Below are positions 4,495-48,074 of a stretch of DNA of 64,000 nt, piece after piece. The notes under the pieces were generated by a model. The model did no database searches. It was not told the DNA's origin and worked only from the letters and a program-made list of their open reading frames with translations. The stretch is taken from positions 744,001 through 808,000 of the forward strand of contig NOWV01000014.1 of assembly GCA_003344405.1 (NCBI GenBank), given 5' to 3'. The position numbers and the translations under genes were made by a program. The DNA comes from Trichoplax sp. H2 (taxonomy: Eukaryota). How positions within the stretch are numbered: position 1 is the first letter of the stretch; each line of letters opens with the position of its first letter.

Positions 4495-5589
4495 TCATAG
4501 ATTTAATGTTTTCGTACGTTGATGATGATAAGGGTTCTGGATGTCATTAGCAAATATAGGAGATATTTTGTTACCAAATCTTTTAGATGAACAGCAATGT
4601 CCAAAGACAGAACATAGAGGATCTTTAAATTTTTTCATATGTGTAATGTAAATGATAGGATGATAAATTGCGACTGCTAACATGAATAAACATAAAAAGG
4701 CAAACATAATGGAGATGGCCAAAATAGACATTCTTTCATTGAAGAGAATAATACTGACCAAAATAAAAAAACACATTGTATCGCTTAAAACTTGCAAGGA
4801 GAAAGTAATTTGAAACATATGTACAATGGATTTATTTTTTCCAATTCTGAATTGTTCGACTCGCGAAAGTCGCTGCTGTCGAAGTCGAAGTCGTAATTGT
4901 TGCATTTTCATTGGCGTTAATGATCGATTTTTTAATTTGTGTAGAATACGTGGATAGCAATGTAGTATAGTTACCAGTTGTAGTATATATATTAATGCCG
5001 CTGTTGATATTACTAATAGCTTGACGGTAAATCTAGTTGCAATTAGACCACATAAACTTTCTATTGGAGGAAATGGACCACTTGTGATAGTTCTTGGCCA
5101 AATCATTAGGACACTCACTAGCCAAATTGCTATAATAATTAGTAATACGTGAATTCGTTTTAATTTTTCAACCGCTGAAGTTGCAATAGCTTTATAACGC
5201 TCGTAGGTAATTAAGACTACAGATAAATTAGATATCATAAAAGCAGTCACTAACGTAGGTACAACTAATTTGCAAATAAAGATTTGAAAAAATCTTTGAT
5301 GGAAAATATTAGTTAAATTTAACGTTGCTCCATATCTTCCCCATGTTAAAAAAGTAAATGATATTGTCAAGAAGACGTTCGCCACTGCCAAATTTCCTAT
5401 GCATATATAAGCCGGTGAACGCATATCTTTGTGGGAAATGATGATCATAATTAGATATAAGTTACTGAATAAACCGATGATTTCCAATGGTAGATAGAAA
5501 ATAGCAACTAATTGGTAGAGAAACTGTGAGCTATTATGTATTATATTTATATTATCATAAGAATCATTCCATGATGTTAAATTTTCCAT
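4495..5589 (-). CDS. Intronless class A (rhodopsin-like) GPCR, divergent orphan
   Basis: 364-aa ORF with seven hydrophobic segments. It has an N-terminal N-glycosylation site (NLTS), TM2 'NLAVA', a TM3 Cys and ERY motif (ITYERY), a TM4 Trp, TM7 'HPIIY' (NPxxY variant) and a C-terminal CC. Confidence 0.9.
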   Translation of the reverse strand: MENLTSWNDSYDNINIIHNSSQFLYQLVAIFYLPLEIIGLFSNLYLIMIIISHKDMRSPAYICIGNLAVANVFLTISFTFLTWGRYGATLNLTNIFHQRFFQIFICKLVVPTLVTAFMISNLSVVLITYERYKAIATSAVEKLKRIHVLLIIIAIWLVSVLMIWPRTITSGPFPPIESLCGLIATRFTVKLLVISTAALIYILQLVTILHCYPRILHKLKNRSLTPMKMQQLRLRLRQQRLSRVEQFRIGKNKSIVHMFQITFSLQVLSDTMCFFILVSIILFNERMSILAISIMFAFLCLFMLAVAIYHPIIYITHMKKFKDPLCSVFGHCCSSKRFGNKISPIFANDIQNPYHHQRTKTLNL

Positions 5590-9602: not shown

Positions 9603-11227
9603 CTATCGGCTTCTTTGAAAGCGTGCTAATCTTGCTTCTCTAACTTTATCAACATCATTAGAATTGGGCATCTGACTGGGCTGTGGATAAGTACGATGGA
9701 TATCATCCTGAACTAGAAGAGGAGGAGCAGTAGCAATCGGCCTAAGAAATTTTAAATTAAGAATTTGAAGTCCGTATCAGGCGTAAGATCTTGTCCTCGC
9801 TAGATAGATATTTTTACAAGCAGCGATATTTCACCTATTATGATGGCTTTCTTGTAAGCTAGCTTGTATTGCCTGTTGGAATTCAGGATCATCGTCATCG
9901 TTAATAGGTTCGTACTGTGGTCGTCGACTGCCTGGATAGGATGGACCGCTGACGTTATTGACGTTATCTGCATGGCTTGGAGTTTGCATTCTATAACCAG
10001 TCACTCCTATTTACGAGTATGAAGCCATTAATTATATAATGTATATACACTAGTATTAGTAATTTACGTGTACAGTATTTGACAAGAGGATTATATATTA
10101 TCAAAAGAAATTTGTTTCCTACCTGACGACTGAAATCTTTGACGATGTCTTCGATTACTAGAGCCTCTGCTACCTGTAACTTTATAGATGATGATAGAGA
10201 TTTTAATACTGTACATCATGCATACTTTTACTTTATTGGTTAATGCAGTTCTCTTGAGTTACTTGAAAGAGCACATAATAATCGGATTAGTAAAGCAAGT
10301 GGAATAATCTTTTACGATCAATCTTTAGTAATTGTTAATGTGTAGAAGAGATACTCAAAGTCTTTCTTACTTCGTAATCGCTAACTGTTCACTTAGTGAG
10401 AACTATGTCTAGTCTTACCAATGCTGAAGATAGAATCCAGGATAGATCCAATTGGTGTCTTTACATATGCTAATCCAACTAAGATACCAGCTAAGTGGCC
10501 TAGGAAAGAGCTGTTTGGTACTAAGACTTGGATAAGAACTAATTCAGCCCAACAGGCGTAGCGTGAGCTAATAGGAATCAAGTTCATTATATAATTGGTG
10601 CTAGGGGGTGAAACGTATGTCGCCACCACTTTAAGAGCAAATATAACTCCTAAATACAGTCAGAAGAAGAAACTTTATTATCGACAGTGTCTAGAAAAAT
10701 AAATAATGGCTTTAGATGGCGATTGAATTTTTCTCACAGAAAGAGTCTGATAGACATGTACTCTATGTAGAAAAATTACCTGAAAAACCAACAGCACAAT
10801 CGGTAAAGTAGTGTAGCTTGTCAGTATGATGTCCTATTGCGTAGCTTATTGCCACTAAGGTGACATTAGTTAATGCTGTAAAGCTGATAATCATAGATAG
10901 AAAGTGTAAGCTTCCATATTTCTTCTCTAAATGTATCCCTTTCCATAGAAATGAGACCATATTATAGTAAAGATGCATATCGCTAGCATGAAAGAAGGCT
11001 CCTAATATTAATCTTTGCCATTCGTTCATATACCAAACAGACTTGACACTAATGCAAACTTCACTTAAATGAGGTAATCGATAATCAGGTAATAGATTCA
11101 TAAACAGGATTGAATTGAGACCAATTGTAGCCAGTGTGATCGGTGGAATGCGATCTAAGCCTACATGAAATAGGTTAGCAAGGAGTAAAAGTAGACCAAA
11201 ATTGTTTCCGCGTCTCCTTAAGACCAT
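9603..11227 (-). CDS. RHBDD1: Rhomboid-related protein 4 (RHBDD1/RHBDL4), ER intramembrane serine protease; 5 coding exons
   Basis: Reconstructed exons: 11227-10780, 10649-10419, 10179(or 10173)-10123, 10006-9835, 9741-9603; all GT-AG and in phase. Motifs: WQR (WR motif), HxxxxHLYYNM, catalytic GFS|G spanning intron 1 (GFSGVIFALK) and GHLAG with the catalytic His. The tail has a UIM-like 'DDDPEFQQAIQASLQE' and a p97-binding-like 'REARLARF' before TAG at 9603-9605. Confidence 0.92.
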
Positions 11228-14200
11228 TTTGATCGGATCGGATGTTTGAAGCAAATATCTCGACAAGAGTAAGAGGCGATGATCCAAAAAGCTCGATATC
11301 GATGGCCACAGAATAAATTGAAAGATTTCAACGCGTGTCGCCAATATTGAAGAAAGCGAATGAAAGAAAAATTTCAATATTCAGCTAATAGATACTACAG
11401 GAATCATTTGCTGTCTATTCTATTTGAAAAGGACATTGAATATCCATTTCTCCTTCCTAACTGTTAATTCTACTGTCGAGTGTTGGCTTAAAACCTTTGT
11501 TGATATTGGTTGAAATCAGCGAACTCGTTATCGTATTGGGTTTCAGGATAGCACACTGATCTTTAGTATAGAGTGTTCAATCTTGGTAAGGTTACGATCG
11601 CCGAACACGGATTGCGCTGTGATCTTGCTAATACGTCTTGGGATGATAGCCAATCGTAATTGCATGCAGTAAAGCTTTAGAATAATAATAATAAATCAGT
11701 TAGAAGAAATAAGATGTCAGCATTAAGTTAGAAATAAGATTGGAGCGTAGAACATTTGTACACGTAGACCAGATGACGTCACCATAATTAATTTTAGAAT
11801 AGCATTCAATTGATAGTAAGACACTAGAGATCGGAGCGATGATTGAGTTGTCCTACTACCATATCAACGTCTTGTTTTCAAGGGATATTTTACTGCTTGT
11901 CGACATGGTTTGGGACTGACGTCGGATGGACAGACTTTCACTCTCGCTGAGGCCGAAAATGTCGAAAAATAGTAAAGCAGTATAGATCTTCCGAGACTAT
12001 TTTCGAAAGCAATCGTATTAATTTGAATAATATTTGTGATCTACTGCATGGTTGCTACTTCCAACCAGAGGTTAGCATCAGACGATGGAATACAATGTCA
12101 TATTACTTACTTCATTTAGAAAAAATCAGCCAATTCAGAATCGACTGTCTGCCTACTAAAGTATTCTCATAACAGAGTGTTTGGCACAATTTGTTGACGA
12201 AATGTGGCTAAATGTCTATCCAGTTCAGGTATTTTTCAACGAATGGTCTATGGTACAGTGCAGTATTACAGTAGACGATGCTGGTGGGACAGTAGTACCA
12301 ATCTTATCCATATAAAACTGTACCAATAAATTACAATCTAGAATCAAATCTGTCAGAACCAACTCCTACAGTACGTTAGAAATGTATTTCTCTGACTTTC
12401 GTTTCTGAGCCTATACTGCAAAGTATATTGCCTCTTGGTCAGATTTATCATATTCGCATTCATTTACCGTTTAAATAATATGAAATTGACTGCACTGAGT
12501 GCTCTACACTATTAAATCCATATAGCACAGTATACTACGAGCATAGTAAGGTAAAAAAGTACTACTGGTAGTCATGGACAACTAAATTACCGGTCTGTGC
12601 ATCGAGTAGACCATGTATTAGTACACTCAGTACGCCAAGTATAGCGATCTTAACGGGTGGGCAATTTTGTAAACAATAATAAATGTGTTTTCTTTGGCTT
12701 TTTGGTAAATTTACTATCATTGCCGTCGTCAGCCAGCTGAAGTAAATTTCGTCTTTTGAAAGTCAATTTTATTTGCCAAATAGTTATATGTTTATTATCC
12801 TCTACTGGTATCTAAGCAACTGTGAGCCACGCTAGTTACTATATTGTCGTTTTTTCACCGATATCACGATAAAGTCTCTCACTAGGATTTCAAATAAAAT
12901 AAGCACTAATTACAGAAATAGCAATCAGATCTCCAAGAGACCTTCAATTTTGCGAATAAAAAATAAAATTCGATTTTTTGTCAAACTCTGATTGGAAGTA
13001 CGTTAGCTTGTCACCATTGGCCAGCCAAGTAAATTTCACCGGCTGAGGAAAGGATTTTTGCCCGACAGTCATTTGGTGTATCTTGACTGTATTTCGTAGG
13101 ACAGTATTGTGTGATGTGTTATATTAACACGCTATCTAAGAGTCGATACGTCAAACATGAGAGACTATAAATCGCTTATTATAAACGATTTCCACTACCG
13201 TTTGCCATGGTTGTAACAGTACTATAATTTATATTCAAGTAGAAAGTTTATTTCTTAATGCGAATATTATGTCTGTTATCAATTTATTGGCAGGAGGTAC
13301 CATTTTGGTCATGTAGTATTTATATTCATATCTCAGTATTCTATTGTCGATAATGGTAAACAAGAATAAAATAATGATTTAGAGAAAAAATCTTGGACTT
13401 TCTTCTAGCCGCAACCTGAACTGATACATAGAAAGGAGATCCGGTCAATTGTATTACGTAAGATATGAAAAATGCATTTTAGAGCATTATATACTTAAAT
13501 GTTCCACAGTGCTGAAATCTCTCAAGTATTCAGAACTTTAACTTGGATTTAAATATCTTTGACAGCCTTTACAGCGGATCTTAATTTTTTAGACATCCAT
13601 ATAGAAGATGTTGATCCCAATACAGCATTAGGGTTGTGATGCATTTGTGAATCATGATTGATACGGAATTTGTAATGCCCGATTGTGTAATATTAGCGTG
13701 TACTTCCTTTTGTAATGTATTATCTTTTGAAGCAAGTATACAGCATACTCATATACTGCATAAAGCCAGATAGCTATCATATAAACATGCCCTACTTGTA
13801 ATTAAATGCCTGGATTAACGTAAACATAGCCAACGAATAAAAAATGTAGGGTATTGTAGATTTTGAGATTAATAAAGGAACTATAATTGACGTCATTCTA
13901 TCGGCGAGTTCATTTCCTGTAGTGATATATTAAAACGTAATTGAAACTGCATGCAAATATATTATGCTATAGAATAGGATATTATTTTGAAAGAAGGGAA
14001 AGCTGAAATTGTTGGCTTAGAGTAATTTTTAATCAATGCAGACGCGTTATTGATGCCTGCTTTTAGCGAATCATATCTGCTTCCATTGTTAGAATTGAAA
14101 TCATTCAATTTCCTACGGCCCTTTTTTGAATAAGTATTATCAAAATGTTTCAGAGAAATCGAAGTATAAAACAACATAAAGTACCGATTGACTACGATTT

Positions 14201-14282
14201 TGATTTAATTGTTCCATTTTACTGAAAAAGTTTTTTCTCTCATGTTTATGTATAATTATCCGTAATCAACATAGAATCAGTC

Positions 14283-15392
14283 ATGTTCGTTTGCCAAAAA
14301 GGTACAACTACGATTTCAATTTATCACAAGAATGAAACAAGCTTTAAGTATCCAACGATTTATGACCAATATCTTCAAGCTGCTGTGGTGTTAAATTCTA
14401 CCGTTGCTATCATTAGCATCATATTAAACACTTATGTTTTACTTGTTATTACCTATAATAAAACCATGCGATCAGCTGCTCACTTGGGAATGATAAACTT
14501 AGCTTTCGCTGGATTGATATGTTCGGCTTCGTTTTCAGCGGCTGATGGTATAATATATTACTCTAGTATCAATAAGCTACTACAAGATAAATTAGTTATT
14601 GATATTACATGTGGAGTTGCTGTTCCATTAGGTATGTCAGCTTATATGGCCAGTATCGCTACATTAACTTTTATTGCGATCGATCGTTATCGTGAAATGG
14701 CTGTACCGTCATCACACAAGTGGAAAAGATGGCAACTATTATTCGGATTGATTACAGTCTGGCTATTCGGCTCGTCAATAAGCTTTCCGCACGCTCTAAA
14801 TAAACTCAATTCTCAATCGCTTGTCAAAGCGTGCGATTTATGGGTTTTACGTTATGATGGCAGGAAAGTTAACCTTTATCTCATTGACATTCCTCTTTTC
14901 ATACTCTTTTTGATAATGCTTCTCTGCTATCTAAGAATTACGATCAAAATAAAAAGTACTAACAAAATTTTAGATGCTAATCAAGTGGATGATAATACTA
15001 TTTCACGAGTAGACGAAATTAGATCGCAACGTAGAAACTTATTACTGAAAGTCTTCCTGATCATATCCTTGATACAATTTTTGTTAATTCTTGTATGGCT
15101 TGTGATGATTCATGTCCTAGTTTTGGGTTACGACGTTGCTAATATCCATTTACTAGGGCTTTTATCTATTATGAATCATACATTTTTGATATGTATGAGT
15201 AGTTATAATGCTTTTATTTATATCTATTACTTGGAAAGATTTCGCTTCTTTGTTGAAAAAATGTTCCCGTGCTGTATGCGCTTAGAAGGTGAGGAACAAA
15301 TGAACCTAACAAATGATCGAGCACAAAATCCTTATGCGATATATCAAGGAGAGCCCGATGGTGCAGCCATGGAGACAAACAATGAAAATTAA
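14283..15392 (+). CDS. Intronless class A GPCR, divergent orphan; paralog of the 4495-5589 receptor
   Basis: 369-aa ORF with seven TM segments, TM1 Asn, TM2 'NLA', TM3 Cys plus 'AIDRY', TM4 Trp and TM7 'NAFIY'. Confidence 0.9.
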   Translation: MFVCQKGTTTISIYHKNETSFKYPTIYDQYLQAAVVLNSTVAIISIILNTYVLLVITYNKTMRSAAHLGMINLAFAGLICSASFSAADGIIYYSSINKLLQDKLVIDITCGVAVPLGMSAYMASIATLTFIAIDRYREMAVPSSHKWKRWQLLFGLITVWLFGSSISFPHALNKLNSQSLVKACDLWVLRYDGRKVNLYLIDIPLFILFLIMLLCYLRITIKIKSTNKILDANQVDDNTISRVDEIRSQRRNLLLKVFLIISLIQFLLILVWLVMIHVLVLGYDVANIHLLGLLSIMNHTFLICMSSYNAFIYIYYLERFRFFVEKMFPCCMRLEGEEQMNLTNDRAQNPYAIYQGEPDGAAMETNNEN

Positions 15393-18300
15393 AGATATAA
15401 TTGTAAAATAGCAATAACTGTGTAGCTAGAGTAAATAATGATTCGATATTCATGAACGTAATATTACACAAAATATGGATAGAGCATCCTTTGATCGATG
15501 ATAATATATTAAGACCGTTCTTGTCAGGTACAAAGCAACTATCTTACGAGGAATACTTTAGATCATGTATGCAAATGATATACGTACTGCACGGCATTGT
15601 ATATTATAACTACCCTATACTGGCACAGTTTTTGTAAACTATCCAAAATTGTTGACACAATAATTAGATGGCTAAAATTTTCGATTTCTATGAATTGCAT
15701 TGTTTTATTCATGTTAAGGTATGAATACTGCATTAGCACTGAGGAATTTATTGTCAGCGATATTGAATGTCTACTGTATAATATTAGTGAAGTTAGATCT
15801 AAGTTCATACATTTACTACAGCATATTTTTTTTTATAATATATCACAATAATAATCTTTACTAGTTATCTCAAATGGCCTACGGCTAGTGCAGTAAGATG
15901 TAGATTTAGTCACATCTGAAATCAAAAATTTCTGGTCTATTGAATTTTTATATACTGTAGCTGCTCGATTAAGCCGTAATATATATATTCTACGAAAATT
16001 CTTGTTTCTTTCGATAGGTCGTCGAAATAAAGTAGGAGGAATGACAGCCTCGAGTTGATATTTATTTCATTCCTTTATTCCAATGTTTCGCTTTGAATTT
16101 AATCCGAGCAAAATTTCATAATATATGCATGAGGTTGTATGAATATCCATCCAAAAAAGAATAAAATATCTAAATGATTCAATTATTTCTTAATTAAAAA
16201 TCCGGCAACATCTTTGTATGGCGAATATAATATCATTTATCATAATATAAAATTTTGCGATTCTCTTTTGTCGTCGATTATATTTCCAGTTACACATTAG
16301 CTATTAATGCTTAAAGATTACAAATTTTTTCAACTGAATTTCGTTATGAAATATTCAATTTATTTTAATAGTACTTTATCCATTCCCACTATCGAAGTTT
16401 GAGCCATTGTAAATATAATAAAATGTTGCCTTTATGATAGATAATCATGAATTCATAAGTTTTTTGCGATGAATAACTCTGCATAGTATGCTGAGGTTTT
16501 CCGGGTAATAGAAGCAGATTTTTTACGCTCCGTTTTTACATTTTTTTCTATCGAGCTATATCCAAACTTAATCTTAGATTCCTTCTACTGATTATGCAAG
16601 AATAAATACTAATTATTCATAATAAATATTTACCAATTTGACAAAGATAGGGCTGAAATTTATTAAATTCTCGTTTTAGTAGTGCAGTATACCAGTATTT
16701 CAAAGTGTAGGTTTATAATTTTATAGTTCATATTATTAACCTATAGATAATTTGGAATATCCTGATTGTATCTGCGCTGTTATTGAAAAATAGTTGTGTC
16801 TTTATGATACTCTGTCCCAATTACGAGATTTTAATTGGTTCGATAAAAATTTATGATGCAGTAAGGACATGGCAGAAATGTTTGTAGGTACATTACAGTA
16901 CAGCACGTACACATGATTTCGAAAATTTTACATAATAATCCCAAGGTAGTGGGGTGTGAGTGACAAGGTAATAACGTATTTTCTATTTATTATTTTTATA
17001 TTTGTGACGTTCTATAAATAAGTACTTATTTCAATAGAAATTTGTTAGCAGTGTGTAATAGAGCGTAAATCCAGTTTACTTCTATTTCGATCGGCGGAAT
17101 CTATCTAACAAATCCCTTTACAACCCCTTATGATACTTGAAGCACAGATGAAAAATATCCTTGACATTTGGCAGCGCACCTCAAATCATGATTATCAGCC
17201 ATATGAATATTGATTAAGGTATTAAAAATAAAAAGGATCTAAATGAAGACTATAATAGTCAGGAATGAGATCGACATGAGAGATAAGTATTGATTCAGAA
17301 CAGAAGTCATGAATTTAAAGGGTATAGCTCATATGATGCAATAATGTAGCATAGCTGGTTGAATGGACGTCATTAGCTTACCTAGTCGACTGCCCTTGTC
17401 AATTGTATAGTTGCAGTATTTTATCAATTTATCTTGCAAAGTACAATCGGGAACATGCACTACTGAAAAATCTTCTTTTAAGACTTTACGATGTGGAATT
17501 AGTGACCTTGAGGTTGAGTTATTTGGGCATTCATATGGGTGTACCGATTTTTAAACTGACAGCAATAGTTTAAAAACAAAAATATTGGTGCTGAGTGATT
17601 TAGGAGAACAAGTTGACCGTATACTAGTGTACAGCCACTGCATATTTTTATTACTGTACTAGTACTACAGATTACGGTTTACAAATACGATACGCATTAC
17701 GCCGTTATAATTAATAGTGAGTAGAAATATATGATAATTTGTTTATTTAATATAATTATGTAAATTTATGATTGCGCAATTTGCATTTGTATCTAAGTAT
17801 AGAAGTACAATTTGCCTTGCATATTTTCTTATACAGTAAAATTTAAAATTTTAAGATTATCTTTATTACCATTGTCAGTAGATCAGTGTCACCGTAAATT
17901 CTTTAACATATGCTTTAACATGCTTTTGATTAATTAATATGATCAATAAGACTGTACCTCGTCGGTTCGATACTGCTTTCAGCAAAGTCTTGCGAACACT
18001 ATTAACTGTAATCGGCGATCCAATTTAAAATTGTTTCAGTTTTATCGCAAATCATAATTTACAATGTAATGCTTATAAACATAGCAGTAAAAATAATAAC
18101 TTTGGTTTTATCATTGTTTCTACTGATGGCAATAAATGAGAGTTGATTATATGAGACTAACTTTCTTTTTTACTCGTATTTATTACGGTAATTTGCAAAA
18201 TAATAGATTTATCAATTATGTATTGACGCGGATTACAATAAGATGAGATTCCCCACGAATCGCTTGACATTTTATGGTAATTATGTATCTCCTAAAATTC

Positions 18301-18414
18301 TATTTATTCTACTTTAGCTAATTAACGGCAATAAATAATTTAATGTAATGCAACTACTGTACTTAATAGGATTATACTTAATACGGTATAGAAAGTGATA
18401 ATAATTCTCAATAG

Positions 18415-19332
18415 CTATGCCTTATTAGTACGATTTAGAAGATTTTGAATGAGTGTTGCGAGGTTATGAGCACAGCGACGATCGAATCGAAAGAATAGTT
18501 CAGGCTCTAGTATTTCGAACTCTGATAGTAGTAATTGATTTTGAGAGTCGTATATAGCATCTACTCGAGCGTAAGCCGGTTTAGTCCTGCATTTCTCTAC
18601 AACATTTTCGGCAAAATGACGTTCCTGATCCGATGCAGTATATGGAAAGACATACCCTCCATAGTCGTCTTGAATCTTAAATTCTCCTTTTTTAGCTACT
18701 TTAAGTACACTATGAGTTAGTTTACCATCGATGACCACAAAGGACATTTCGCCTTTTGTAGTATAAGCTTCCATAAATGGCTGGGCAAGCAATTCCTTCT
18801 GTGATATCAAATCTGTGAGAATACTCTTGTATTCATCGATTTCATCGCGTTTTATCTTGAAAGTATTTTTGGCAGCAGCTGACACAGCCGGTTTAACGAC
18901 TATAGTTTGTGTCTGGAGTTTATTAAAGATATTATCAATATTTCTTAGATCATTATTGCATAATTTTATCGTTTCCACGATAGGAATTTTCTTTTCTTGG
19001 AATTCAAATAAGTAATTTTTGTCTATATTCCACAAGCATAGATCTGCTGAATTAATTAAAATCGTCTTTTTCTCTGTTAGATGTATCCATTCTTTAAAAC
19101 TTTCCCAATAATCGGAATAGTTCCATGTAGAGCGAATGATAGCACAGCGTACAGTCTCCCATTCGAATGGAATATCCCAAGCAACACGTATTGCAGTTAA
19201 TCCCACATTTCTTAGGCAATGGATGAGTAAGCTTTCTTCAAATCTAGACTGGATACGGTAGAAATCGTGATCGGGCAAATCTTGAAACCGGCTACTGTTA
19301 CAAGATTCGGTTACAATTGCTACGTCAATCAT
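18415..19332 (-). CDS. Bacterial-type ATP-grasp ligase (DcsG/RimK/glutathione-synthetase-like), copy A
   Basis: Intact 305-aa intronless ORF. Motifs match the prokaryotic ATP-grasp family: RSTWNY (cf. RSTWDY), WNIDKNYL, VVKPAVSA, QPFM, GEMS, KGEFKIQDDYGG, YARVD and the metal-binding EFEILEP. Confidence 0.85.
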   Translation of the reverse strand: MIDVAIVTESCNSSRFQDLPDHDFYRIQSRFEESLLIHCLRNVGLTAIRVAWDIPFEWETVRCAIIRSTWNYSDYWESFKEWIHLTEKKTILINSADLCLWNIDKNYLFEFQEKKIPIVETIKLCNNDLRNIDNIFNKLQTQTIVVKPAVSAAAKNTFKIKRDEIDEYKSILTDLISQKELLAQPFMEAYTTKGEMSFVVIDGKLTHSVLKVAKKGEFKIQDDYGGYVFPYTASDQERHFAENVVEKCRTKPAYARVDAIYDSQNQLLLSEFEILEPELFFRFDRRCAHNLATLIQNLLNRTNKA

Positions 19333-20318
19333 TGTCGTTCACGATTCGTCTTCTTTTTCCTACACAATATTTCGACAATCAAATACTACGGTGCTACACT
19401 AGTTAATTAATTAAGTTAAGCCTTCCAACGCTTAGTACTATCCTTAAGAAGAAATTTTTCAAAAACTAAGCGATTTTTTTAGCTTTAAAACCTTGCAAAG
19501 GAATAATGGATAGTGCTGGAACTGCAGGATAATGTCCATCTTGTGCGTTATTCGAAGACGGTTCGTTTGGAACCACTTTCATACCGGGTAAAATTTATTG
19601 TTTATATATAACAGGCTGGCATTACCGACGTTGGCTGTAACATATTGTGTTATTATATAATTACGGTATGCTAGTCCTATAATTATAATCCGTGGCGTGG
19701 CTGACAGACTGTGACTAATAGCGATGTTGGCCGTAACATATTGTGTTGTATCACACCAGCTTGCAAGAACCTGCTACTTCTCATCGCTGGAACAGCTCTA
19801 TCCGTTCTCTTGTCCAAATTGAATATAATAATTAAATTTCATGCAGTGTCAGCCTTGTGTAGTGATAGGTATTTGCAAGCAAGGGTAAGTACCGTCTTGG
19901 ACCATGATACAGTGTAAAAGAATAATTTGCTTCGCATATTTCCTTATACCGTAATATTATTTAACTTCAGGGCTAATCATATTAATTATATAATTTTTCA
20001 TCATTGTCAGAAGGATCAAAGATGGAAAGTAACAGTCATGATTTTATTATTGCATCGAATGATGACGGCAATAAGTATCAATTTATAATTACTTTGTTTA
20101 CGCAGTTACTCAAAAGTTACTTGAAATTGATTTTATTTAAGTACGGAAATACAGAGTATGCAATAACTATGCATTCATCTTTCATTATAATTTACGCTGC
20201 ATATCTATAGACTTGAATCAAACTATTATACGTAAACTATAATTTAAGATACTGCAACTACTTTGTAGGATTATACTTTATACCGTGTGTAGAGTGATAA
20301 TTATTCTCAATAGTTACT

Positions 20319-21239
20319 TTATACCTTATTAGTACGATTAAGAATATTTCGAATAACTGTTGCGAGGTTATCTGCACATCGTCGATCGAATCGAAAGAAT
20401 AGTTCAGGCTCTAGTAGTTCGATCTCCGTTAAAAATAATTGATTTTGAGAGTCGTATATAGCATCTACTCGAGCGTAAGCCGGTTTAGTCCTGCATTTCT
20501 CTACAACATTTTCGGCAAAGTGACGTTCTTGATCCGATGCAGTATACGGAAAGACATACCCTCCATAGTCGTCTTGAATCTTAAATTCTCCTTTTTTAGC
20601 TACTTTAAGTACACTATGAGTTAGTTTGCCATCGATGACCATGAAGGACATTTCGCCTTTTGTAGTGTAAGTTTCCATAAATGGCTGAGCAAGCAATTCT
20701 TTCTGTGATATTAAGTCTGTGAGAACACTCTTGTATTCATCGATTTCATCGCGTTTAATCTTGAAAGTATTTTTGGCAGTTGCTGACACAGCCGGTTTAA
20801 TAACTATCGTTTGTGTTTGAAGTTTATTAAAGATATTATCAGCATTTTTGAGATCAGAATTGTTCAATTTTATCGTTTCCACGATAGGAATTTTCTTTTC
20901 TTGTAATTCAAATAAGTAATTTTTGTCTATATTCCACAAGCATAGATCTGCTGAATTAATTAAAATCGTCTTTTTCTCTGCTGTACGTATCCAATTTTCA
21001 AAACTTTCCAAGTTATCGATATAATTCCATGTAGAGCGAATGATCGCGCAGCGTACAGTCTCCCATTCGAATGGAATATCCCATGCAACACGTATTGCAG
21101 TTAATCCCACATTTCTTAAGCAATGGATGAGTAAGCTTTCTTCATATCTGGTCTGGATACGTGCAAAATCATCATCTGGTATATCCTGAAATCGGCTACT
21201 GTTGCAAGATTCGGTTACAATGGCAACGTCAATCATCAT
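20319..21239 (-). CDS. Bacterial-type ATP-grasp ligase, copy B (tandem duplicate)
   Basis: Intact intronless ORF; first ATG at 21239 (MMIDVAIV...). Same motifs as copy A, with 32 substitutions in 305 aligned residues by manual count (~90% identity). Confidence 0.85.
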   Translation of the reverse strand: MMIDVAIVTESCNSSRFQDIPDDDFARIQTRYEESLLIHCLRNVGLTAIRVAWDIPFEWETVRCAIIRSTWNYIDNLESFENWIRTAEKKTILINSADLCLWNIDKNYLFELQEKKIPIVETIKLNNSDLKNADNIFNKLQTQTIVIKPAVSATAKNTFKIKRDEIDEYKSVLTDLISQKELLAQPFMETYTTKGEMSFMVIDGKLTHSVLKVAKKGEFKIQDDYGGYVFPYTASDQERHFAENVVEKCRTKPAYARVDAIYDSQNQLFLTEIELLEPELFFRFDRRCADNLATVIRNILNRTNKV

Positions 21240-21840
21240 TGACAATTTATCTTTTTTAGCTCTACGCGTATTTCACAATCAAAACACTACAGTATTGCTC
21301 TAGTTCAACAAGAACGCGTCTAGAAATCATTCAACTGCGAGCAATCGTACAGTACAACAGAGGATTAGCAGTTATTTCATTTATTCTATAGCACAGTTCA
21401 CTTTGCAGACAACTTGACGGATACTTGGTTGCACACGGTAAGTCAAAAAGTAGATCATTGGAGTTTTGCTGACTGGTGGCTAACAGTAGCTAGGGACGAC
21501 AACTAGTCGTGCCCAGCGGGAAGGAAAATGGATCACGATGAACTCTGCATAGCTCATACAGTACAATATGGAGCTTGCTGCCACTATTGTCATACAAAAT
21601 ACAGTACAGTATTGCATAAAGTTGCATCACTTGCTTTTACTATGCCAACATACAGTACGTACAGTACTGTAAGCCTCAACGGTACAGTACTCGAAAATTG
21701 AATGGAATATTGTACTGTGGCCGACAACTGAGCGCTGACCACGCTGACAATATTCTGAGTACTATGTATTCACTGCCACCAGCCTCCTGTAGTCTTGGCA
21801 ATCTTCTAGATAGATCGAGTGACATGATTTATTAGGGATT

Positions 21841-22190
21841 TGTGGATGTCCGACAGACAGGTTAGGAAGACATATATCTAGGAGTACATATCTTCCTAAC
21901 CTATCCAATTATATATGATTATATTGATTTAAATTATTGTTCTTAATTGATAATAAATAGTGAGTCTATGTTGTCATGTACTATAGATTGTTATGCTATA
22001 ATGTTTATTGCCATGTACGATCGGACAGGTTAGGAAGACATGTATCTTGGGGAGTACATGTCTTCCAACTTGTCAGATTATATTTATTTAATAATAAAAT
22101 AATTGTTCGTTATTACTAATCAATAAATGATGAGCCTATGTAGTCATGCAGATTGTTATGCTATAATATTGATTGTAATGTGGATACTAA
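21841..22190. repeat. Two-copy ~170-bp tandem repeat, each unit carrying a ~50-58 bp hairpin
   Basis: The units share 'gacaggttaggaagacat..at...gtacat.tcttcc(t)aac.t.tc' and downstream 'agattgttatgctataat'. Hairpins lie at 21856-21905 and 22021-22078. Confidence 0.8.
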
Positions 22191-23762
22191 TATCAGGAAG
22201 ATAAATTTGGGTTTGCTCATTTTACTGATATACTAAGTACCGTATTTTGTGAACATGAGGAATTAATTGAGGTTCATTAAATGCAAGCTGTGCGAGCTGT
22301 ACTTACTGGATATCATTAGTGCGATTTTACCAGCACAGTCACAACGGCTGTCTGACAAACAGTTTCATCGATCTGCAAGATCCGCTCAGATGATATTTTC
22401 ATCGCCAATACTGTTTGCATGCATGTTAGTGAATAAATGGCCTGTATTGATGAATGATGAAGTCTTTGACTAGTTATGACTTTCGCAATCGTCATAAATA
22501 CAACTGAGTCCTCTAGAAGTATGGCAATACTCATACCATGATATTTACTGTACTGCATAAGTGCATATTAGTGCTCTGTAATCCCACTTGGACTAAATCT
22601 CACTAATCGTTATTACGTGTACAGTGCATTTATTCATAACTTCAGTACAATCGGATACTCAAATTATTTTATGGGTGACCAATATACATGCTCGTATAGA
22701 GTGTAGATAAATAGTAATAAAATAAAATTATAATCGTTCATTAACTGTGAGTCAGTGATAAATTAGACAGTAAAGTACAAGTACTGTACGAGTGTACAGA
22801 CGAGTATGATATAGTTACTGTAGTAAGCGAACGTATGAGCGCATGATAAATCAGCACTTACTTCCAAACCTGCTTCGGGGTTTTATTGCACATCTCAATC
22901 AAGATGCAGTACAGTACTATTAAGCATAGGAGTAACGATCTCAGTTTTGCTATTATTATACATGAATTCGAAATCGTTACACCGATAATTGCAAGATTTC
23001 AAGACATTACTTGGTGAAAACAGGATTTTTACCGAGGATAGTACATCAATTAGGCCATTCTTAATTAAAATATATAGCAACAACGATATCAGATAATGAT
23101 AAGTAGATAACCATTGCAAATTTGAATAGACCTGAAACGTATACAGTACATACTCAGCAACTACTGTACTGAACATACGTGGAGATGGTACAGTAGTACA
23201 GCAAATTGTAACTATGTAGTAACGAATTCAAAGCAAAGACATACAAAAATACATTGTATCTAATTATTGTTCTGTATTCTGCAACTTCCAACTACCAGTA
23301 AATTATGCAGTATTAAGCAGAGTTATAAGCTTGAATAATGAACTTATAAGATAATGATATAATTGAGGAAAACATAATAACGCGAGACAATACTGGCTGC
23401 AATGCATATGTTTCGAATGACGACGTATGGCATAGTACCATCAGTAAGCCATCAGTCAGTTACTTCACATCACCGGTTACTGCAGTATAGTGTTCATCAG
23501 TGCGCAATGGCTTTACATACAGTAGTTGCAAGAAAGACCTATCCGTGCAGCATTGCATGCTGATTCAATCCATTTTACTAAATATTCTGCTTTACAAGGT
23601 ATTACATATGTGTCAATCAAATTGTGTTATCACTTATTCATCATCTACTACAACTGTATCACTACTTCATAACCCCTATTTGCAAAATCGGAAAGCCGAC
23701 TATTTTACAAATAGAAGAAAAAATTTGTCGCTATTAAAAATTGCAACTAACTATGAATGCAT

Positions 23763-24131
23763 TTATTTTTGAGGTTGTCCACTTTCCAGTCCTAATTGCT
23801 TGAACATACATTCATCATAAGCACGCTGAGAGGGCCGACAATATTCAAATTCGTGATTATTGTGATCTAAGCAAGTCCAGTGTTTAGTAAAGTCTTCTCT
23901 ACAACTGGCGTTGACTTTTTTAAAGAATTCAACAGCACATTCGCTTACGCGGCGTCCTTGAGGCAAGCACTTTCTTGGATCGGTGGTTTCGTAGCGACAT
24001 AACATAAATTCGTGGTTGGGCTTGTCACAATAATTTCCATAATGGTACGCTGCTGCGGCGAGTACGGCCGACGTTACATTGACTTCTTCCACTAGCAAGT
24101 CTGACACTGGAACATCTCTTGTAGAACTCAT
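23763..24131 (-). CDS. NDUFA8: NADH dehydrogenase (complex I) subunit NDUFA8, intronless
   Basis: First ATG at 24131 gives 122 aa. Signature 'EEVNVTSAVLAAAAYHYGNYCDKPNHEFMLCRYETTDPRKCL..G..V..C' with eight cysteines in CX9C-type pairs and 'FTKHWTCLD'. Confidence 0.93.
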   Translation of the reverse strand: MSSTRDVPVSDLLVEEVNVTSAVLAAAAYHYGNYCDKPNHEFMLCRYETTDPRKCLPQGRRVSECAVEFFKKVNASCREDFTKHWTCLDHNNHEFEYCRPSQRAYDECMFKQLGLESGQPQK

Positions 24132-24339
24132 AATGACTATTTCAGATCTTGACACAGCTAAATCACTCTTTGCTGTACGTTAGGCTTGTTCAGTATAGTA
24201 CATAGGTTTAGAATGAATGACAGCACCCAATGAAGATACTTTATTCCCAACTTTGCGCTGCTCTCGATTGCAGACCAGATTCTCAAGATGGCACTCGAAA
24301 GCGAGCGTTCTCCAAAGACAAGCGTGACGATGTCTGCAT

Positions 24340-24850
24340 CACTGTGTGCACTGCAGTGCCGTAGTTTCCACTGTACAATGTACCCTGTAGAGGCCAGGAC
24401 TACAGTACTGTACTGTACTGTACTGTACAGTGCAAGAGGTAAAAGGAAAAAATTCCACATGAAACTGTACTGTACAGTACTGTACAGGGTTAGGGTTAGT
24501 ACTGTGTAATTTGTAATTGACATACTGTACTGTACTGTACACGCTGTAGTGTACTGTACAGTACAGTACACGGAGAAAGGATTCTGAACCCAACACGCTA
24601 ACATACTGTACTGTACTCGAACTGACGCCTGCGCACTTTGTCACTAAGAGTTTGTTGTAAATACAGTACAGTAGATTATGCAGTTGCAGTGTTGCACAAA
24701 TCCGTACAGTACTACTACACGGAGAAAGGATTCTGAACCCAACACGCTAACATACAGTACAGTACTGTAGCCCTTATTACTGTACTCGAACTGACGCCTG
24801 CGCATTTTGTCACCAAGAGTTTGTTATTGATAAATTATGCAGTTGCCATA
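24340..24850. repeat. ACAGT/ACTGT-rich block containing a ~130-150 bp direct duplication
   Basis: Dense tacagtactgta pentamer arrays. 'cacggagaaaggattctgaacccaacacgctaacatac...tgtactcgaactgacgcctgcgca.tttgtcac.aagagtttgtt' occurs at ~24569 and ~24718. Confidence 0.85.
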
Positions 24851-25700
24851 ATTACGGTGGAGGAAAAAACTTCAGTTTGGTGTCTGCTCGCTCTTGTGCG
24901 TGAGAACTGTATAATGAATCATTTGAATCATCAAGTTAAAATAGACAGTACTCACAGTAGCAGGCTAACTGGTCGATGGCAATACGTGTATATCCTTTAG
25001 TGATAGGATAGACAAACTGTCAAGTAGAATAAGCTGGTTCTTGCAGACGCATTGTACAGTATAGTTAGTAGACGTATACGTATTATCATTGAAAGTAATC
25101 ATCACACAAAAATAGTAATAACGTCTTTTATGACGTTGAATGGTGAAAATTATTAGTTTCTCTCCAAGTTCTGTTACTAGCAAACATATTAGAAAAATTG
25201 GGCTCCAAGGCTTATAGCTGAGTGAAGAACTTAAGGTGATAGAGTAGCTAGCATTCAACTCAAAGTATTATTCAAAAAGATTGATGTTGATGCTACCATT
25301 TGGGAGTCACGACATATTTGGCGATAAAATATTCGGCGGCTGATCGTTCCATTTATTGTTCAAATAACGCGAAAAGAAATAGCTACGGCAATTCTACAAT
25401 CTACGCTGCTGGTAAAACCAAAATTTCGTGTAGATTGCTTTATTCTCAGTTGGCAAGTTGATATCACTAGCTAAGAAATCGAGATAGCTGATACATCACC
25501 TTGAATGATCGATATTTATATGCTTTGGCAATTGCATCACATTGGCCTGAAACAGCATATCAGTAATTAAACAGCTTTGGGCAATCGCTCACCAGAAGTT
25601 AGCAAATTAACTTATTCCTAGTACAAGCTCCCATAAGTGTTTGAGTAACTACTTCTTGGACAAATCAATTGAAAAACTTAAAAATTTTACGGTATTTAAA

Positions 25701-28700
25701 ATGGACGAGAAAATTTGCGATAAAACAAAGGATACGTTAGGAAAAATTATCAAAAAGCCACCATTAACAACAAAATTACTTAGTAAACCCCCTTTTCGAT
25801 TCCTACATGATATATTGACGGAGGTCGGTTTTACTTTATTTAAATTACATTTAATTTTAAGTTCATTCCATTGGTTTTTGCCAGAATTTTTCTTTCTACT
25901 TTAGAGCAACCACATTATAATTATAATCAAGTGATTTTCTCAACCGTCTTCTAAAATTTCTAATATTGGAGTATAGGTAATTCGGACAACTGGCTTTATG
26001 GAAGGTTTATATACCAAAGATGAGATGAATTCTCAAAATGTTAAGGTTATTTGATATAATATAGTTGTTTCTTAAAAATATCCATTAGTTGCAAGGTTAC
26101 AGGATATCGTCATGCATTTAAACTTCGAGTAGAACGACTATTGGTTGCAGTCGTTTACGTTTCTCTAAGTTCCCCAATTTTTATTTGAATATATTTGGCG
26201 TTGTATGCGAGGTGATAGTACTGCACCTGTTGACTTGTAAACTTCTTTCATAGGATAAAGATAGCAAAATGGCCTTCCTACAAAAAGCTGTGGATTGTAT
26301 TTGTAAGTAATATATGTTGCAAATATTAGTGACGTACGGACTATTAAGTTAAGGTTGATATTAGCAAATTTTGGGCATATCTACTTTTTCTTTCCGTTGT
26401 ATATGTGCGATCTTTGTGAAACTAAAATATTTAATCATTGTTGGTTGTATAGGCCATGTTGCACACCAAAATTTATCAGTAAAGCCATCTAAAATTGTGT
26501 CCGGTCACGAGCCAGAAAAAACTAATGAACTTTTACAAGTTATGGCTTTGGCTATAAGTAATAAGGTAACAACACTTTACTGCCGACAAAATGATTGCTT
26601 CTTACTCAAAATAGGAATAGTACGTAAAATATGATTGCATATGAAAGCAACTTTGAAATATGTTCATGTTCTAGACGGATAGCTCTGATGCTGTTAAGAA
26701 AGTTTTATCTGGTGTGAAACCGTCGAGGGTATCTTCGGGGTAAAATATGAAATACTCATTATATTCTAATTAATCTAAAGATTCTAGTATTGTTGCTAAA
26801 AATTTACTGCATAGGTGCTAATGTTGATATTGTTCGTATAGCAAAAAAAGGGAAGGAGGTTCAGGTAAATCAAGTCGTTCTAAAGAAAATGATGTCCGAC
26901 AATCCAGTGCCGAACGATCACAGAAAGAAGTACGTTGTTTAAAAGATAAGGAATGTTTCATTGTCGTCTATACGTGCGCCTTATTAAGTTTTTCATTATA
27001 ATTTTGGTAGCAAAAGAACGGTAATCAAGAAAATATACCTAGTCATACTGAAAATGAAGAAAGATCTAGAAAAGAAAGACACACGCCAAAGGAAGAGAAG
27101 AAAGCTGAAAAAGAAGACAATTCAAAGGTATTAATTTGGATTGAACTAAGTAATTAGTATTTAGTCCGTACTGCAATATATTCTTATCGTTACCTATATC
27201 TATATGTGTACTACGTGTCATGTTACGCACGCATTAATGTAATTAGATGCTATAATAATTAATAATAAATAACGGTTATTGCTAGCAGAGGGTTCCTCAC
27301 GATGAAGAGGTTAAAGGCAATGATACGGCACCAGTTGAACAGGATTCTCGGGGAAAACAGGTTAATTTTGATTTAGATTTATAAAAAATGGGAGTCATCG
27401 GTGCGTCTCACCATTCTTGATAGAGGTGATGATAGGTGATAAAAATGAAGACCTTTTTGATAAATAATTTAGAATGATGTTCCGCCAGAGGCTGACCAAC
27501 GTCCATCTTCACCAAAAGGATCTCGGGCTACCAGAGAAAAACTGGATGACGGTATATCTCATATTTCTTGTATCTACTGATCAGAAAAAAAGTCTCTCTA
27601 ATTAACTATTGTATACAACCTCTCTAAATTTATATTATAGAAACAAACGATAAAGCTCTACGCAAGCCTCGCTCTGGTAATTTGTTTTTACAGTTTTAAT
27701 GTGGTGGTAAATGTTTTCTGGCACCATATTTGATTTAGCACTGCATAAAAAATGCTATATTGCAGCGAGCTTATAAAGATGATTGACTGTTTTTATTGAT
27801 ATAGCCTATAATAATGTACTTATATAATATTAGCCAATAAGGATACAACAGATGGGCCAATCAGATCTGCAAAATCCGATCGGCAACGATTAAATGGAGC
27901 GATGAATGAAAATGATGAAACTCCTGTGCCCCGTGTTTATAGCGGGTAAAGCATGTTTTTGGCGGAACTTTTCAATTAATACCTCCTATTATCATACGAG
28001 ATATCTAACGTTATGAAACGAAATTAATTTAGTCACGTAGAACGACCTAGTAGTGCAAGACCTGCACCACCGAGGCCTCGGAAGCCTGGTTCTGGAGATG
28101 ATCGTACTAGCCGGTACAGTTTTGAATTACTTTTCAGTTCTGTTTTCCTACGTATGGTTTTATATAATTTTATTTATATTTTATGGTATTAATGTTTGCT
28201 AAATACTTTAGGAATAGCGGTTCTGCAAAAGCTGTTGCCAATGTCATTGTTGATAATGGCAATGAACAAGAGTCAGAAGATGAAACATTTGTCGTAGAAG
28301 AGACACAACCTACTATTATAAAGGTTAATCATAAAACTAATTTTTATTGTGCTGGACGCTAAATTTTCTATGGAGGCTTGTGCCATATAAAACATTTAAA
28401 AGAATACTGATAGCCGTCATGTTTTTAATTTAAGAATACATGTACAAAGAGTATAGTATGTGTTAGAAATATTTTACTTGCAATGTATTTTGAGTATATA
28501 TTAAGTGTGTGTTGAGCAGTGAATTTTATATTGAACTGTAAACAGGATGAGCAAGTTGTAGACAATATAGAAATTGAAAATGAAGAACACGGTGGGCTTG
28601 TAAAAAAGATTTTAGAAACAAAGAAAGAACTCGAGAAGAAAGGGCCTAAAGGACCTGATACGGTAATCAACACATTTAAGAAAGTTTAGTAAGGAAGTGG

Positions 28701-47072: not shown

Positions 47073-48074
47073 ATGAACGAATCTAGCGAAAATAACACCA
47101 TCGATTATGAACTAATTAATAGCATAGCATTTCTATCGGCTATTCCGATCACTATTATTGGCTTAGTAGTGAATTTATTCATTCTTTATATTCTCATCTC
47201 AGATAAAAATTTTCATAAAACTACTTACTATCTAATACTATTCTCCGTTCTATCTGATATCGCGTCCACAGGCGCATCTAGTTTATCTTTTACTACTGGA
47301 TCCGTACTGCAACTGCAACTCTATCAAGGCACAATACTTTGTCGCATGTTCATTTTCATCATTCTGGCATCATATGGCGTATCGATGATGACATTATGCA
47401 TTATAAGTGCCGATCGTTACATGGCGATTGTTAAACCAATGTCTCAATTCTATCGTCGATATAAGAAACTTATCATCTTCCTATTACAAATGGCAGTTTG
47501 CTGTATATCGCTTGTAATGGCAATACCAGCTTTACTATTTATAGGTACTTATTCTGATGATACGAAATTTTGTGATTTTCCTACCGTAACTTCATCAACT
47601 GCCCTATACTTTATCATGAGTTCGATTGTATTATATTTTATGCCAGTAACCTTCTTAGTAGTGGCATACTGTAAAATTATATTCCACATGAAAAATCATA
47701 TTAGGCCACCTGGATTATCAGTTCAACAAGCGGCCGAACGAAATCTAAAGAAACGAAAATTTATTCGATCCTTGATGTCTATCACAGCCGCGTACGTATT
47801 AACTACTTGGCCATTTTGGGCGACAAGTATAGGCATGGCAATCACACAAAAATCAATGCGCCAAATTCGCCAGCTAGGTCTATTCTGGTATCTTTTAGCA
47901 TTTGCATCATTCACGGTAACTACTTCAATTAGTGTGGTTAATCCTTTTCTATATTTAAAATTTGATAGCAATATCAGAAAAAAAGCAGCAGCTCTACTGA
48001 AGAGGTCAGCTGATGCCAATGACTATTATAATCCATCAACTCGAATAACAGTTATGACTCAAAACACAGTATAA
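47073..48074 (+). CDS. Intronless class A GPCR (peptide-receptor-like orphan)
   Basis: 333-aa ORF with N-glycosylation sites (NES, NNT), seven TM segments, TM2 'LSD', TM3 Cys plus 'SADRY', an ECL2 Cys, TM5 'YFMP', TM6 'TWPF' and TM7 'NPFLY'. Confidence 0.92.
   Translation: MNESSENNTIDYELINSIAFLSAIPITIIGLVVNLFILYILISDKNFHKTTYYLILFSVLSDIASTGASSLSFTTGSVLQLQLYQGTILCRMFIFIILASYGVSMMTLCIISADRYMAIVKPMSQFYRRYKKLIIFLLQMAVCCISLVMAIPALLFIGTYSDDTKFCDFPTVTSSTALYFIMSSIVLYFMPVTFLVVAYCKIIFHMKNHIRPPGLSVQQAAERNLKKRKFIRSLMSITAAYVLTTWPFWATSIGMAITQKSMRQIRQLGLFWYLLAFASFTVTTSISVVNPFLYLKFDSNIRKKAAALLKRSADANDYYNPSTRITVMTQNTV

Follow-up and report, generated by a model that had tools for sequence, protein, structure and literature searches.

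The 64,000-nucleotide stretch of Trichoplax sp. H2 DNA analysed here (contig NOWV01000014.1, positions 744,001 to 808,000; hereafter the window) contains two neighbouring genes, copy A (P0001) and copy B (P0002), that encode ATP-grasp proteins of a bacterial family. Both are intact and intronless and are read from the minus strand, with products of 305 and 306 amino acids, respectively (coordinates within the window are collected in Table 1). A first-pass annotation, made from the sequence alone, had noted two such open reading frames (ORFs) of about 305 codons and had interpreted them as a bacterial gene that was acquired, integrated and duplicated in an early-branching animal. The present analysis points the same way. 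Because family distribution, phylogeny, linkage to host sequence at host depth, contigs from RNA libraries and purifying selection (dN/dS, the ratio of non-synonymous to synonymous divergence) all agree, we consider it likely that a DcsG_N-type ATP-grasp gene was transferred from a bacterium to a placozoan and was then duplicated in tandem, and that both copies are integrated genes of the host.

Both genes are already present in public databases, as hypothetical or "ATP-grasp domain-containing" protein. In Trichoplax adhaerens, copy B has a counterpart with 99% protein identity, TRIADDRAFT_53893 (XP_002110173), encoded on a 9.7-Mb scaffold. Database records also place a protein identical to copy B on a 949-kb contig, and one identical to copy A on two contigs of up to 9.7 Mb.

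The two proteins align without gaps and are identical at 273 of 305 residues (90%). Comparison of the two halves of the region by blastn gave a single alignment with 88.1% nucleotide identity over 1077 columns, defining a duplication unit of about 1.07 kb that comprises the coding sequence (CDS), about 72 nucleotides (nt) on its 5' side and about 80 nt on its 3' side. The start of copy B was taken at the ATG at 21239; the ORF list instead opens at a TTG at 21245. When the frames are read from stop to stop, only 2 codons (copy A) and 11 codons (copy B) precede the ATGs, and there is therefore no hidden in-frame N-terminal exon or extension. Neither copy has a signal peptide.

Both products are members of the ATP-grasp superfamily and of the DcsG_N plus ATP-grasp family PF27100. 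The DcsG/RimK/GshB-like affiliation proposed earlier is upheld by Pfam, NCBIfam, profile comparison and structural comparison alike. In Pfam, GSH-S_ATP (32.8 bits for copy A and 31.1 bits for copy B, cut-off 23) and RimK (25.4 and 28.7 bits, cut-off 21) exceed their thresholds. A scan at E ≤ 1 returned only these two prokaryotic models and a sub-threshold DUF61, with no match to a TTL or eukaryotic GSH-synthase model. Domain PF27100.1 (named DcsG_N in the ESM Atlas) is present on both window proteins and on all relatives according to precomputed Pfam domains, an assignment for which the local Pfam scan did not report the model. The first-pass statement that the proteins do not resemble animal glutathione synthetase, RIMKLA/B, carnosine synthase or TTLLs also holds, in that neither a TTL nor a eukaryotic GSH-synthase model was matched and the named relatives are all bacterial. 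No animal RIMKL protein occurs among the listed relatives; RIMKLA/B carry a RimK domain, so that the weak RimK match is common to both.

The closest characterised relative is DcsG of Streptomyces (PDB 6jil), which has the same architecture from end to end (DcsG_N plus ATP-grasp, approximately 300 amino acids) and shares the acidic ExExxEP motif. The best NCBIfam model is the DcsG equivalog NF058666, with 118.5 bits for copy A and 125.9 bits for copy B; these scores are far below the equivalog cut-off of 360, and orthology to DcsG was rejected. Models of the RimK/LysX/ArgX/GshB type scored 26-35 bits against cut-offs of 272-408. A 20-member profile matched 6jil over its full length with E 8e-53, as compared with approximately 1e-7 for RimK structures, and a single window protein matched DcsG with 55.8 bits. 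An AlphaFold2 model of copy B, based on a 142-sequence alignment, had a pLDDT (predicted local distance difference test) of 95.9 and a pTM (predicted template modelling score) of 0.93. When this model was submitted to Foldseek, 6jil ranked first (template modelling score, TM, 0.83-0.87; 20-21% identity), followed by ArgX/LysX, RimK, PsnB, Ddl and GshB. All top matches were ATP-grasp ligases (E 1e-25 to 1e-13). RimK, LysX, ArgX and bacterial GshB thus belong to the same fold group (TM 0.71-0.81 for ArgX/LysX and RimK), and an acyl-phosphate ligase mechanism is presumed to be common to them and the window proteins, but their N-domain belongs to another family. DcsG in turn differs from the window proteins by a loop, K-x-G-[DE]-F-[RK]-[VI]-Q-D-D-x-G-G, that is found family-wide with the window proteins and has no counterpart in the aligned DcsG stretch.

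The motif set listed in the first-pass annotation (RSTW[D/N]Y, WNxxKxYL, VKPxVS, QxxxGG, seen here as QDDxGG, YARVD and ExExxEP) proved typical of the family, falling on columns that are invariant or at least 90% conserved in the 142-sequence alignment. Residues K148, Q185, E196, R257, D259, E272 and E274 are present in both copies and are invariant or at least 98% conserved (n=142). Roles in nucleotide and magnesium binding are presumably played by the VKP lysine, the QPF hinge, the YARVD arginine and aspartate and the acidic ExE residues, as in other ATP-grasp enzymes. Of 30 family-conserved positions, copy B has kept all 30 and copy A 29, the exception being L112F.

Comparison of the two copies by the Nei-Gojobori method gave dS 0.263, dN 0.057 and dN/dS 0.216, and both copies are under purifying selection. 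Nine columns with at least 70% conservation among the remaining 137 sequences (family alignment, rows 6-142) differ in one or both window proteins: D34E, D72N, L112F (copy A only), G116K, A209S, R220K, V221I, L273I/F and L275I (copy A only). Because these lineage-specific substitutions are few and mostly conservative, the ancestral activity has probably been kept and is probably the same as in the bacterial relatives. It is highly unlikely that the genes are in decay and yield transcripts that do not encode functional enzymes any more. Degeneration can occur in eukaryote-type members of this clade, as seen in one of three proteins, P0004, P0005 and P0006, that are encoded on Logan/ENA contigs of 2-4 kb and are 60, 55 and 53% identical to copy B. 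P0006 (longest contig 3995 bp) has kept an open frame and has lost 9 of the 30 conserved positions (W71C, Y73N, N103S, Q222L, G226E, G227W, E272D, E274K and E277K, two acidic residues of ExExxEP among them), and may be a decayed or neofunctionalised paralogue. Against decay of the window genes stand their intact frames, the conserved positions that they retain, a dN/dS of 0.22 at a dS of 0.26, and a T. adhaerens orthologue that is almost unchanged in protein.

Integration and transcription

The ORFs are intronless and their family is bacterial, Trichoplax cultures carry bacteria, and the first Trichoplax assembly is described as holding bacterial sequences (PMC3641634). ORFs of a food organism or symbiont might thus have been joined to host sequence by the assembler. 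This was examined with contigs assembled from two short-read DNA runs, X1 and X4, which come from different studies and carry different organism labels; the contigs were mapped on positions 13000-26000 of the window. In both runs, contigs extend from inside copy B (21089) to the neighbouring CHCH-domain gene, reaching 24375 in one run and 24348 in the other, and others connect position 18508 within copy A to the 3' flank of that gene, down to 17174 and 17377. The spacer between the copies is also bridged, by contigs over 19185-20412 that include the start of copy A and the end of copy B. Breaks occur only within duplicated sequence, as k-mer assembly would predict, and contig depth is alike in the genes and in the host flanks (54-64 in X1 and 25-35 in X4). 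No break of the kind that the first-pass annotation had named as a sign of contamination was seen in these contig depths.

The remaining observations are also contrary to contamination. The same proteins are found on the 9.7-Mb scaffold and the 949-kb contig, the best bacterial identity is about 43-45%, and the pair is flanked on both sides by animal genes no more than 3 kb away, with no other bacterial-type gene in the window. When the 1402 proteins encoded beside bacterial relatives were used as tblastn queries, all 244 hits fell within 18300-21300 and no match was found elsewhere in the window; only the single ORF has been kept from the bacterial neighbourhood. Contamination or mis-assembly is thus largely refuted, and we regard its probability as negligible.

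Contigs from two RNA-Seq runs, X19 and X20, were chosen for holding the stretch; both libraries are random-primed and metatranscriptomic. A 1253-nt contig from X20 spans the whole CDS of copy B with 105 nt on the 5' side and 217 nt on the 3' side and contains no intron, and X19 contigs (records 12-14) tile 20006-21500. Minus-strand AATAAA hexamers precede two of the contig ends, by 30 nt at 20102 and by 37 nt at 20006. For copy A, a 332-nt contig from X19 covers the start of the gene and unique flanking sequence beyond the duplicated unit. A GT..AG joint, 25821->25975, is present in both RNA runs and in neither DNA run, and X19 and X20 therefore hold spliced RNA of Trichoplax, the joint marking an intron of a neighbouring gene. 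Together with the flanking genes for G protein-coupled receptors (GPCRs) and rhomboid, CHCH and SRCR/EGF proteins, it bears out the earlier remark that the ATP-grasp genes share a contig with animal genes. Three bins (13000-14301, 16906-18207 and 21680-22547) have depth 0 in both RNA runs and are covered in the DNA runs, which is compatible with little DNA carry-over and was not counted as evidence. Based on these contigs, copy B is likely to be transcribed and transcription of copy A is probable; contig depths were not used to rank the copies by expression.

The RNA contigs differ from the window at six positions in and 3' of copy B (20268, 20279, 20688, 20730, 20832 and 20841). None of these differences is present in X1, a DNA run with the same organism label, and X4 has those at 20268, 20279 and 20688. 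They are most simply explained by strain variation, and RNA editing need not be invoked.

Relatives, phylogeny and origin

An HMMER scan of 1.84 billion representative proteins yielded 5531 clusters (50% identity) at E ≤ 1e-3 and 667 at E ≤ 1e-30, the next-best cluster after the protein's own being 43% identical. With one genome per prokaryote species, at least 568 of 585 pattern matches encode relatives. The 80 of these that were listed are all bacterial, with 34-42% identity, and come mostly from marine Flavobacteriaceae (Kordia, Tenacibaculum, Winogradskyella, Psychroserpens), Balneolaceae, Crocinitomicaceae and Saprospiraceae, together with some Gamma- and Alphaproteobacteria and one member of the Verrucomicrobiota. 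Of 600 metagenome matches, 539 encode relatives; the 80 loci listed are at most 41% identical. Word-indexed searches were carried out with copy B (20 matches listed), with a 20-row alignment profile (best 120 of 1952) and with P0004 (best 120 of 1044). Among the matches listed there is no eukaryote source other than Trichoplax, all other named matches are bacterial, and identity to copy B beyond P0004-P0006 does not exceed 45%. The nearest ESM Atlas clusters are 100% Bacteria.

The bacterial DcsG_N/ATP-grasp proteins, which are annotated as 'glutathione synthase/RimK-type ligase-like ATP-grasp enzyme', are known from marine Flavobacteriaceae, Balneolaceae, SAR86 and other Proteobacteria. They show 34-45% full-length identity to the window proteins and have the same length and the same conserved positions. 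The window genes differ from them in lying on an animal chromosome, in being present as tandem copies, in forming a long separate branch and in lacking the bacterial neighbours.

A quick tree of 92 rows was generated from the two window proteins, P0004-P0006, 44 proteins from named-genome loci (at most two per genus, drawn from the 80 loci L081-L160) and 43 representatives. The window pair and P0004-P0006 formed one clade among bacterial rows (SH-aLRT 99, Shimodaira-Hasegawa-like approximate likelihood ratio test), on a weak backbone. For a careful tree (IQ-TREE, LG+C20+F+G4 with posterior mean site frequencies, PMSF) 60 rows were kept and 32 dropped. Eight of the latter were long branches (P0019, P0170, P0037, P0017, P0021, P0150, P0046 and P0030), and the others were near-duplicate genera or long rows (P0016, P0154, P0048, P0051, P0041, P0053, P0052, L086, L089, L103, L124, L107, L093, L145, L148, L134, L157, L138, L150, L132, L118, L088, L123 and L135).

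In the careful tree the window pair was recovered with ultrafast bootstrap (UFBoot)/SH-aLRT support of 100/99 and P0004-P0006 with 100/96, and the two together form a clade (100/100) on a stem of approximately 1.0 changes per site. The sister group consists of L082, a metagenome-assembled genome (MAG) of the Alphaproteobacteria, and P0026 (98/90); P0024 is added at the next node out (97/84). Unless the root lies inside this small group, the five-member clade is nested in bacterial sequences behind two supported nodes, which is the maximum-likelihood pattern that the first-pass annotation had named as support for horizontal transfer. The window pair and P0004-P0006 are reciprocally monophyletic, and the tandem duplication therefore took place after their lineages had split.

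Could the gene instead be an ancient eukaryotic or animal one that descended vertically and was lost everywhere but in placozoans? The long stem of the placozoan-type clade and the lack of any donor above about 45% identity among the matches listed would fit such a history. We regard it as most improbable, since the listed matches include no further eukaryote source and the nearest Atlas clusters are entirely bacterial, the clade is nested within bacterial and metagenomic sequences, introns are lacking from the gene although the host is intron-rich, and very many independent losses would be needed.

Under the preferred reading, a bacterial ATP-grasp gene would have entered the placozoan germ line by horizontal transfer, the family being commonest on the donor side in marine Bacteroidota, Balneolota and Proteobacteria. 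The transfer is most likely older than the split of Trichoplax from the source organism or organisms of P0004-P0006, and the unit of about 1.07 kb would later have been duplicated in tandem in the Trichoplax line. The nearest named relative, L082, is a marine MAG with 45% guanine plus cytosine (GC), and its gene has ordinary housekeeping neighbours (era, signal peptidase, relA/spoT, rpoZ and leuA-like ORFs). The ATP/ADP translocase PF03219 had no match in the L082 genome, nor in control genomes, so that this result has no bearing on intracellular life. The donor appears to have been a marine bacterium, perhaps an alphaproteobacterium.

Several points weigh against a bacterial transfer with this history. 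The apparent absence of the gene from other eukaryotes rests on best-120 listings and on databases in which non-model eukaryotes are poorly represented. In the careful tree the deeper backbone is weak and the bootstrap correlation reached 0.989 against a target of 0.99. The tree is also unrooted, and it is the parsimony of the distribution, and not the tree, that excludes a root on the placozoan stem. The contigs that carry P0004-P0006 are only 2-4 kb long, and if these sequences were bacterial, the transfer would be younger and the timing given above would be wrong. Carry-over of DNA into the RNA libraries is formally possible, as the contigs show neither strand nor poly(A) tail. Finally, GC content lends no support either way. 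It ranges from 0.27 to 0.43 per kb in the window and from 0.33 to 0.36 across the two genes, and GC at third codon positions (GC3) is 0.32 in both copies, as compared with 0.26-0.32 in the neighbouring GPCR genes. The AT content is thus host-like, as had been noted at first, but it has no discriminating value: GC and GC3 are uninformative on origin because many donor-side genomes are equally AT-rich (median GC of 0.36 for 160 bacterial and metagenomic loci with relatives). AT-richness as a sign of amelioration was rejected on the same ground.

Bacterial transfers to Trichoplax were proposed before by Driscoll et al. (2013; PMC3641634), in a study that began from Rickettsiales-like hits and gave 12 candidates, including BPL_N, DapF, MurA, RsmE, PhrB, GNAT and MhpC; no ATP-grasp gene is among the 12. 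As described there, these are likewise bacterial-type, mostly intronless genes on large eukaryote-type Trichoplax scaffolds. The main text of that paper, its supplements lying outside the search, contains no mention of 'ATP-grasp', 'RimK', 'glutathione synth' or '53893'. A literature search by identifier (TRIADDRAFT_53893, XP_002110173, EDV28339, B3RMC0, Triad[G/T/P]53893) found no paper, and literature on horizontal transfer in Trichoplax and placozoans, supplementary candidate lists not being covered, yielded no report of this ATP-grasp transfer. Nothing bearing on it was found in the accessible text of PMC6067683 and PMC6006793.

The ATP-grasp pair adds a new, well-supported example to the known cases in which an animal has captured a metabolic gene from bacteria; no new type of system is involved, and no general principle is changed. 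The evidence for integration is clean, comprising bridging contigs at host depth, animal flanks, RNA-library contigs and purifying selection, and more than one sequence lineage of placozoan type appears to share the transfer. Few cases are known so far in which animals obtained metabolic enzymes from bacteria, and such transfers are rarely documented in non-bilaterians. To a specialist, transfer of a ligase resembling an antibiotic synthetase into a non-bilaterian would be worth a bench test, though not very surprising.

Predicted chemistry

From their family membership, the encoded proteins are predicted to be cytosolic ATP-dependent carboxylate-amine ligases. The carboxylate of the substrate would be phosphorylated to an acyl-phosphate, with the VKP lysine, the YARVD arginine and aspartate and the acidic ExExxEP residues serving Mg-ATP. 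Transfer of the acyl group to an amine would then create an amide or a ring in a small molecule that resembles an amino acid. By analogy, a small, amino-acid-like substrate is somewhat favoured over the C-terminus of a protein, because the relative DcsG is described as cyclising a free amino-acid derivative to D-cycloserine (PMC9298251). D-cycloserine chemistry would be an analogy only, since the genes are not DcsG orthologues. No dcs-type companions were seen in the window, the dcs genes themselves not having been used as queries.

An enzyme of the same bacterial origin might instead act on a protein or peptide C-terminus, as do RimK, LysX and ArgX. ArgX/LysX and RimK are the next-best structures after DcsG, the Pfam RimK model is matched above its cut-off, and genes for M14 carboxypeptidase, tricorn protease or gamma-glutamyltranspeptidase lie directly upstream in some bacteria. 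We nevertheless consider a peptide substrate unlikely. DcsG is the closest characterised relative both by profile and by fold, it acts on a free amino-acid derivative according to the source cited above, and no LysW-like or S6-like partner is conserved beside the bacterial genes or found in the window.

Bacterial neighbourhoods were surveyed at 127 loci of at least 5 kb, out of 160, and no neighbour family was found in more than 23 of them. A 240-amino-acid membrane-anchored protein without a Pfam family is encoded directly downstream at 20 loci, often with an overlap of 10-16 nt, an arrangement noted in Flavobacteriaceae, and a DEAD-box helicase directly upstream at 15. Gamma-glutamyltranspeptidase is encoded directly upstream on the same strand at 8 loci (gap of 7-47 nt in 7 of the 8), and M14 carboxypeptidase and tricorn protease directly upstream at 4 loci each. 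In several marine Bacteroidota, gamma-glutamyltranspeptidase precedes the ATP-grasp gene on the same strand with gaps of 7-120 nt; loci with this arrangement or with the downstream 240-amino-acid protein include L003, L004, L119, L124, L136, L140, L153, L155 and others. In the bacterial family, the ATP-grasp protein could form a functional module with gamma-glutamyltranspeptidase or with the 240-amino-acid protein, and the context may hint loosely at amino-acid, peptide or gamma-glutamyl metabolism. The associations are, however, too taxon-bound to name a substrate, and there is no conserved operon.

None of the bacterial neighbour partners, including gamma-glutamyltranspeptidase and the 240-amino-acid protein, had a tblastn match in the window. 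The term "biosynthetic system" used in the first-pass annotation is thus an overstatement: one enzyme type is present in two copies, and 0 of 1402 bacterial neighbour proteins were matched elsewhere in the window. The product suggested there (an amide, dipeptide or cyclic metabolite) and its suggested role in defence, signalling or symbiosis likewise find no support in the present results. To our knowledge, the sole characterised member of the DcsG_N plus ATP-grasp family makes an antibiotic. By this analogy it might be speculated, with little confidence, that the captured ligase makes a placozoan-specific small molecule that serves either as an antimetabolite against microbes of the grazed biofilm or as a signal. 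Candidate products would be cyclised or amide-linked derivatives of an amino acid or of a gamma-glutamyl compound.

The family is abundant in marine bacteria, and the fact that an animal has kept and duplicated a member of it is a good reason to work out the role of the family. For placozoan biology, the genes raise the possibility that the animal encodes a small-molecule pathway that came from bacteria. If a small-molecule product were confirmed, the animal copies would provide the first physiological handle on thousands of uncharacterised enzymes of marine bacteria.

Surroundings in the animal chromosome

Table 1. Features of the window at and around the two ATP-grasp genes (positions are those of the window).
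Feature	Coordinates	Strand	Remarks
Copy A (P0001), ATP-grasp CDS	18415..19332	-	intact, intronless; ATG start, 305 amino acids
Copy B (P0002), ATP-grasp CDS	20319..21239	-	intact, intronless; ATG start, 306 amino acids
Duplication unit, downstream copy	18335..19404		CDS plus ~72 nt 5' and ~80 nt 3'; blastn of two halves
Duplication unit, upstream copy	20239..21305		blastn of two halves
AATAAA hexamer 3' of copy A	18303..18308	-	position scan
AATAAA hexamer 3' of copy B	20132..20137	-	30 nt before RNA-library contig end
Second AATAAA 3' of copy B	20043..20048	-	37 nt before contig end at 20006
X20 RNA-library contig, 1253 nt (record 19)	20102..21344	-	colinear, 0 gaps, 7 other letters
X19 RNA-library contig, 332 nt (record 11)	19185..19516	-	copy A 5' end; 0 other letters
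Rhodopsin-family GPCR ORF (7tm_1)	4495-5589	-	intronless; Pfam
Rhomboid exon	10763-11377		
Rhodopsin-family GPCR ORF (7tm_1)	14283-15392	+	intronless; Pfam; RNA-library contigs over part
CHCH-domain protein CDS	23763-24155	-	
Rhodopsin-family GPCR ORF (7tm_1)	47073-48074	+	intronless; Pfam
SRCR/EGF exon	61058-61867		

Two repeats lie upstream of copy B. The first, at 21856-22175, consists of a 170-bp unit present 1.9 times (78% matches) with a short palindrome in each unit. It is located in the 1.2-kb spacer that separates the CHCH transcript contig, at its 3' end, from the 5' end of the contigs for the copy B transcript, and could represent a small repeat of a mobile or regulatory kind. The second, at 24284-24717, is a short repeat of very high copy number, at which the summed depth of DNA contigs is about 20,000 in X1 and about 10,000 in X4, as compared with about 60 and about 30 elsewhere; dozens of alternative joints and loose ends are found in the DNA contigs at this site. 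A 148-amino-acid ORF (24158-24604) that overlaps this repeat has no Pfam match and reads as repeated 'STVQY', and is probably repeat sequence and not a gene.

RNA-library contigs of 1403 nt are colinear over 22748-24302, from the CHCH CDS down to about 22750, which suggests a 3' untranslated region of about 1 kb for the CHCH gene.

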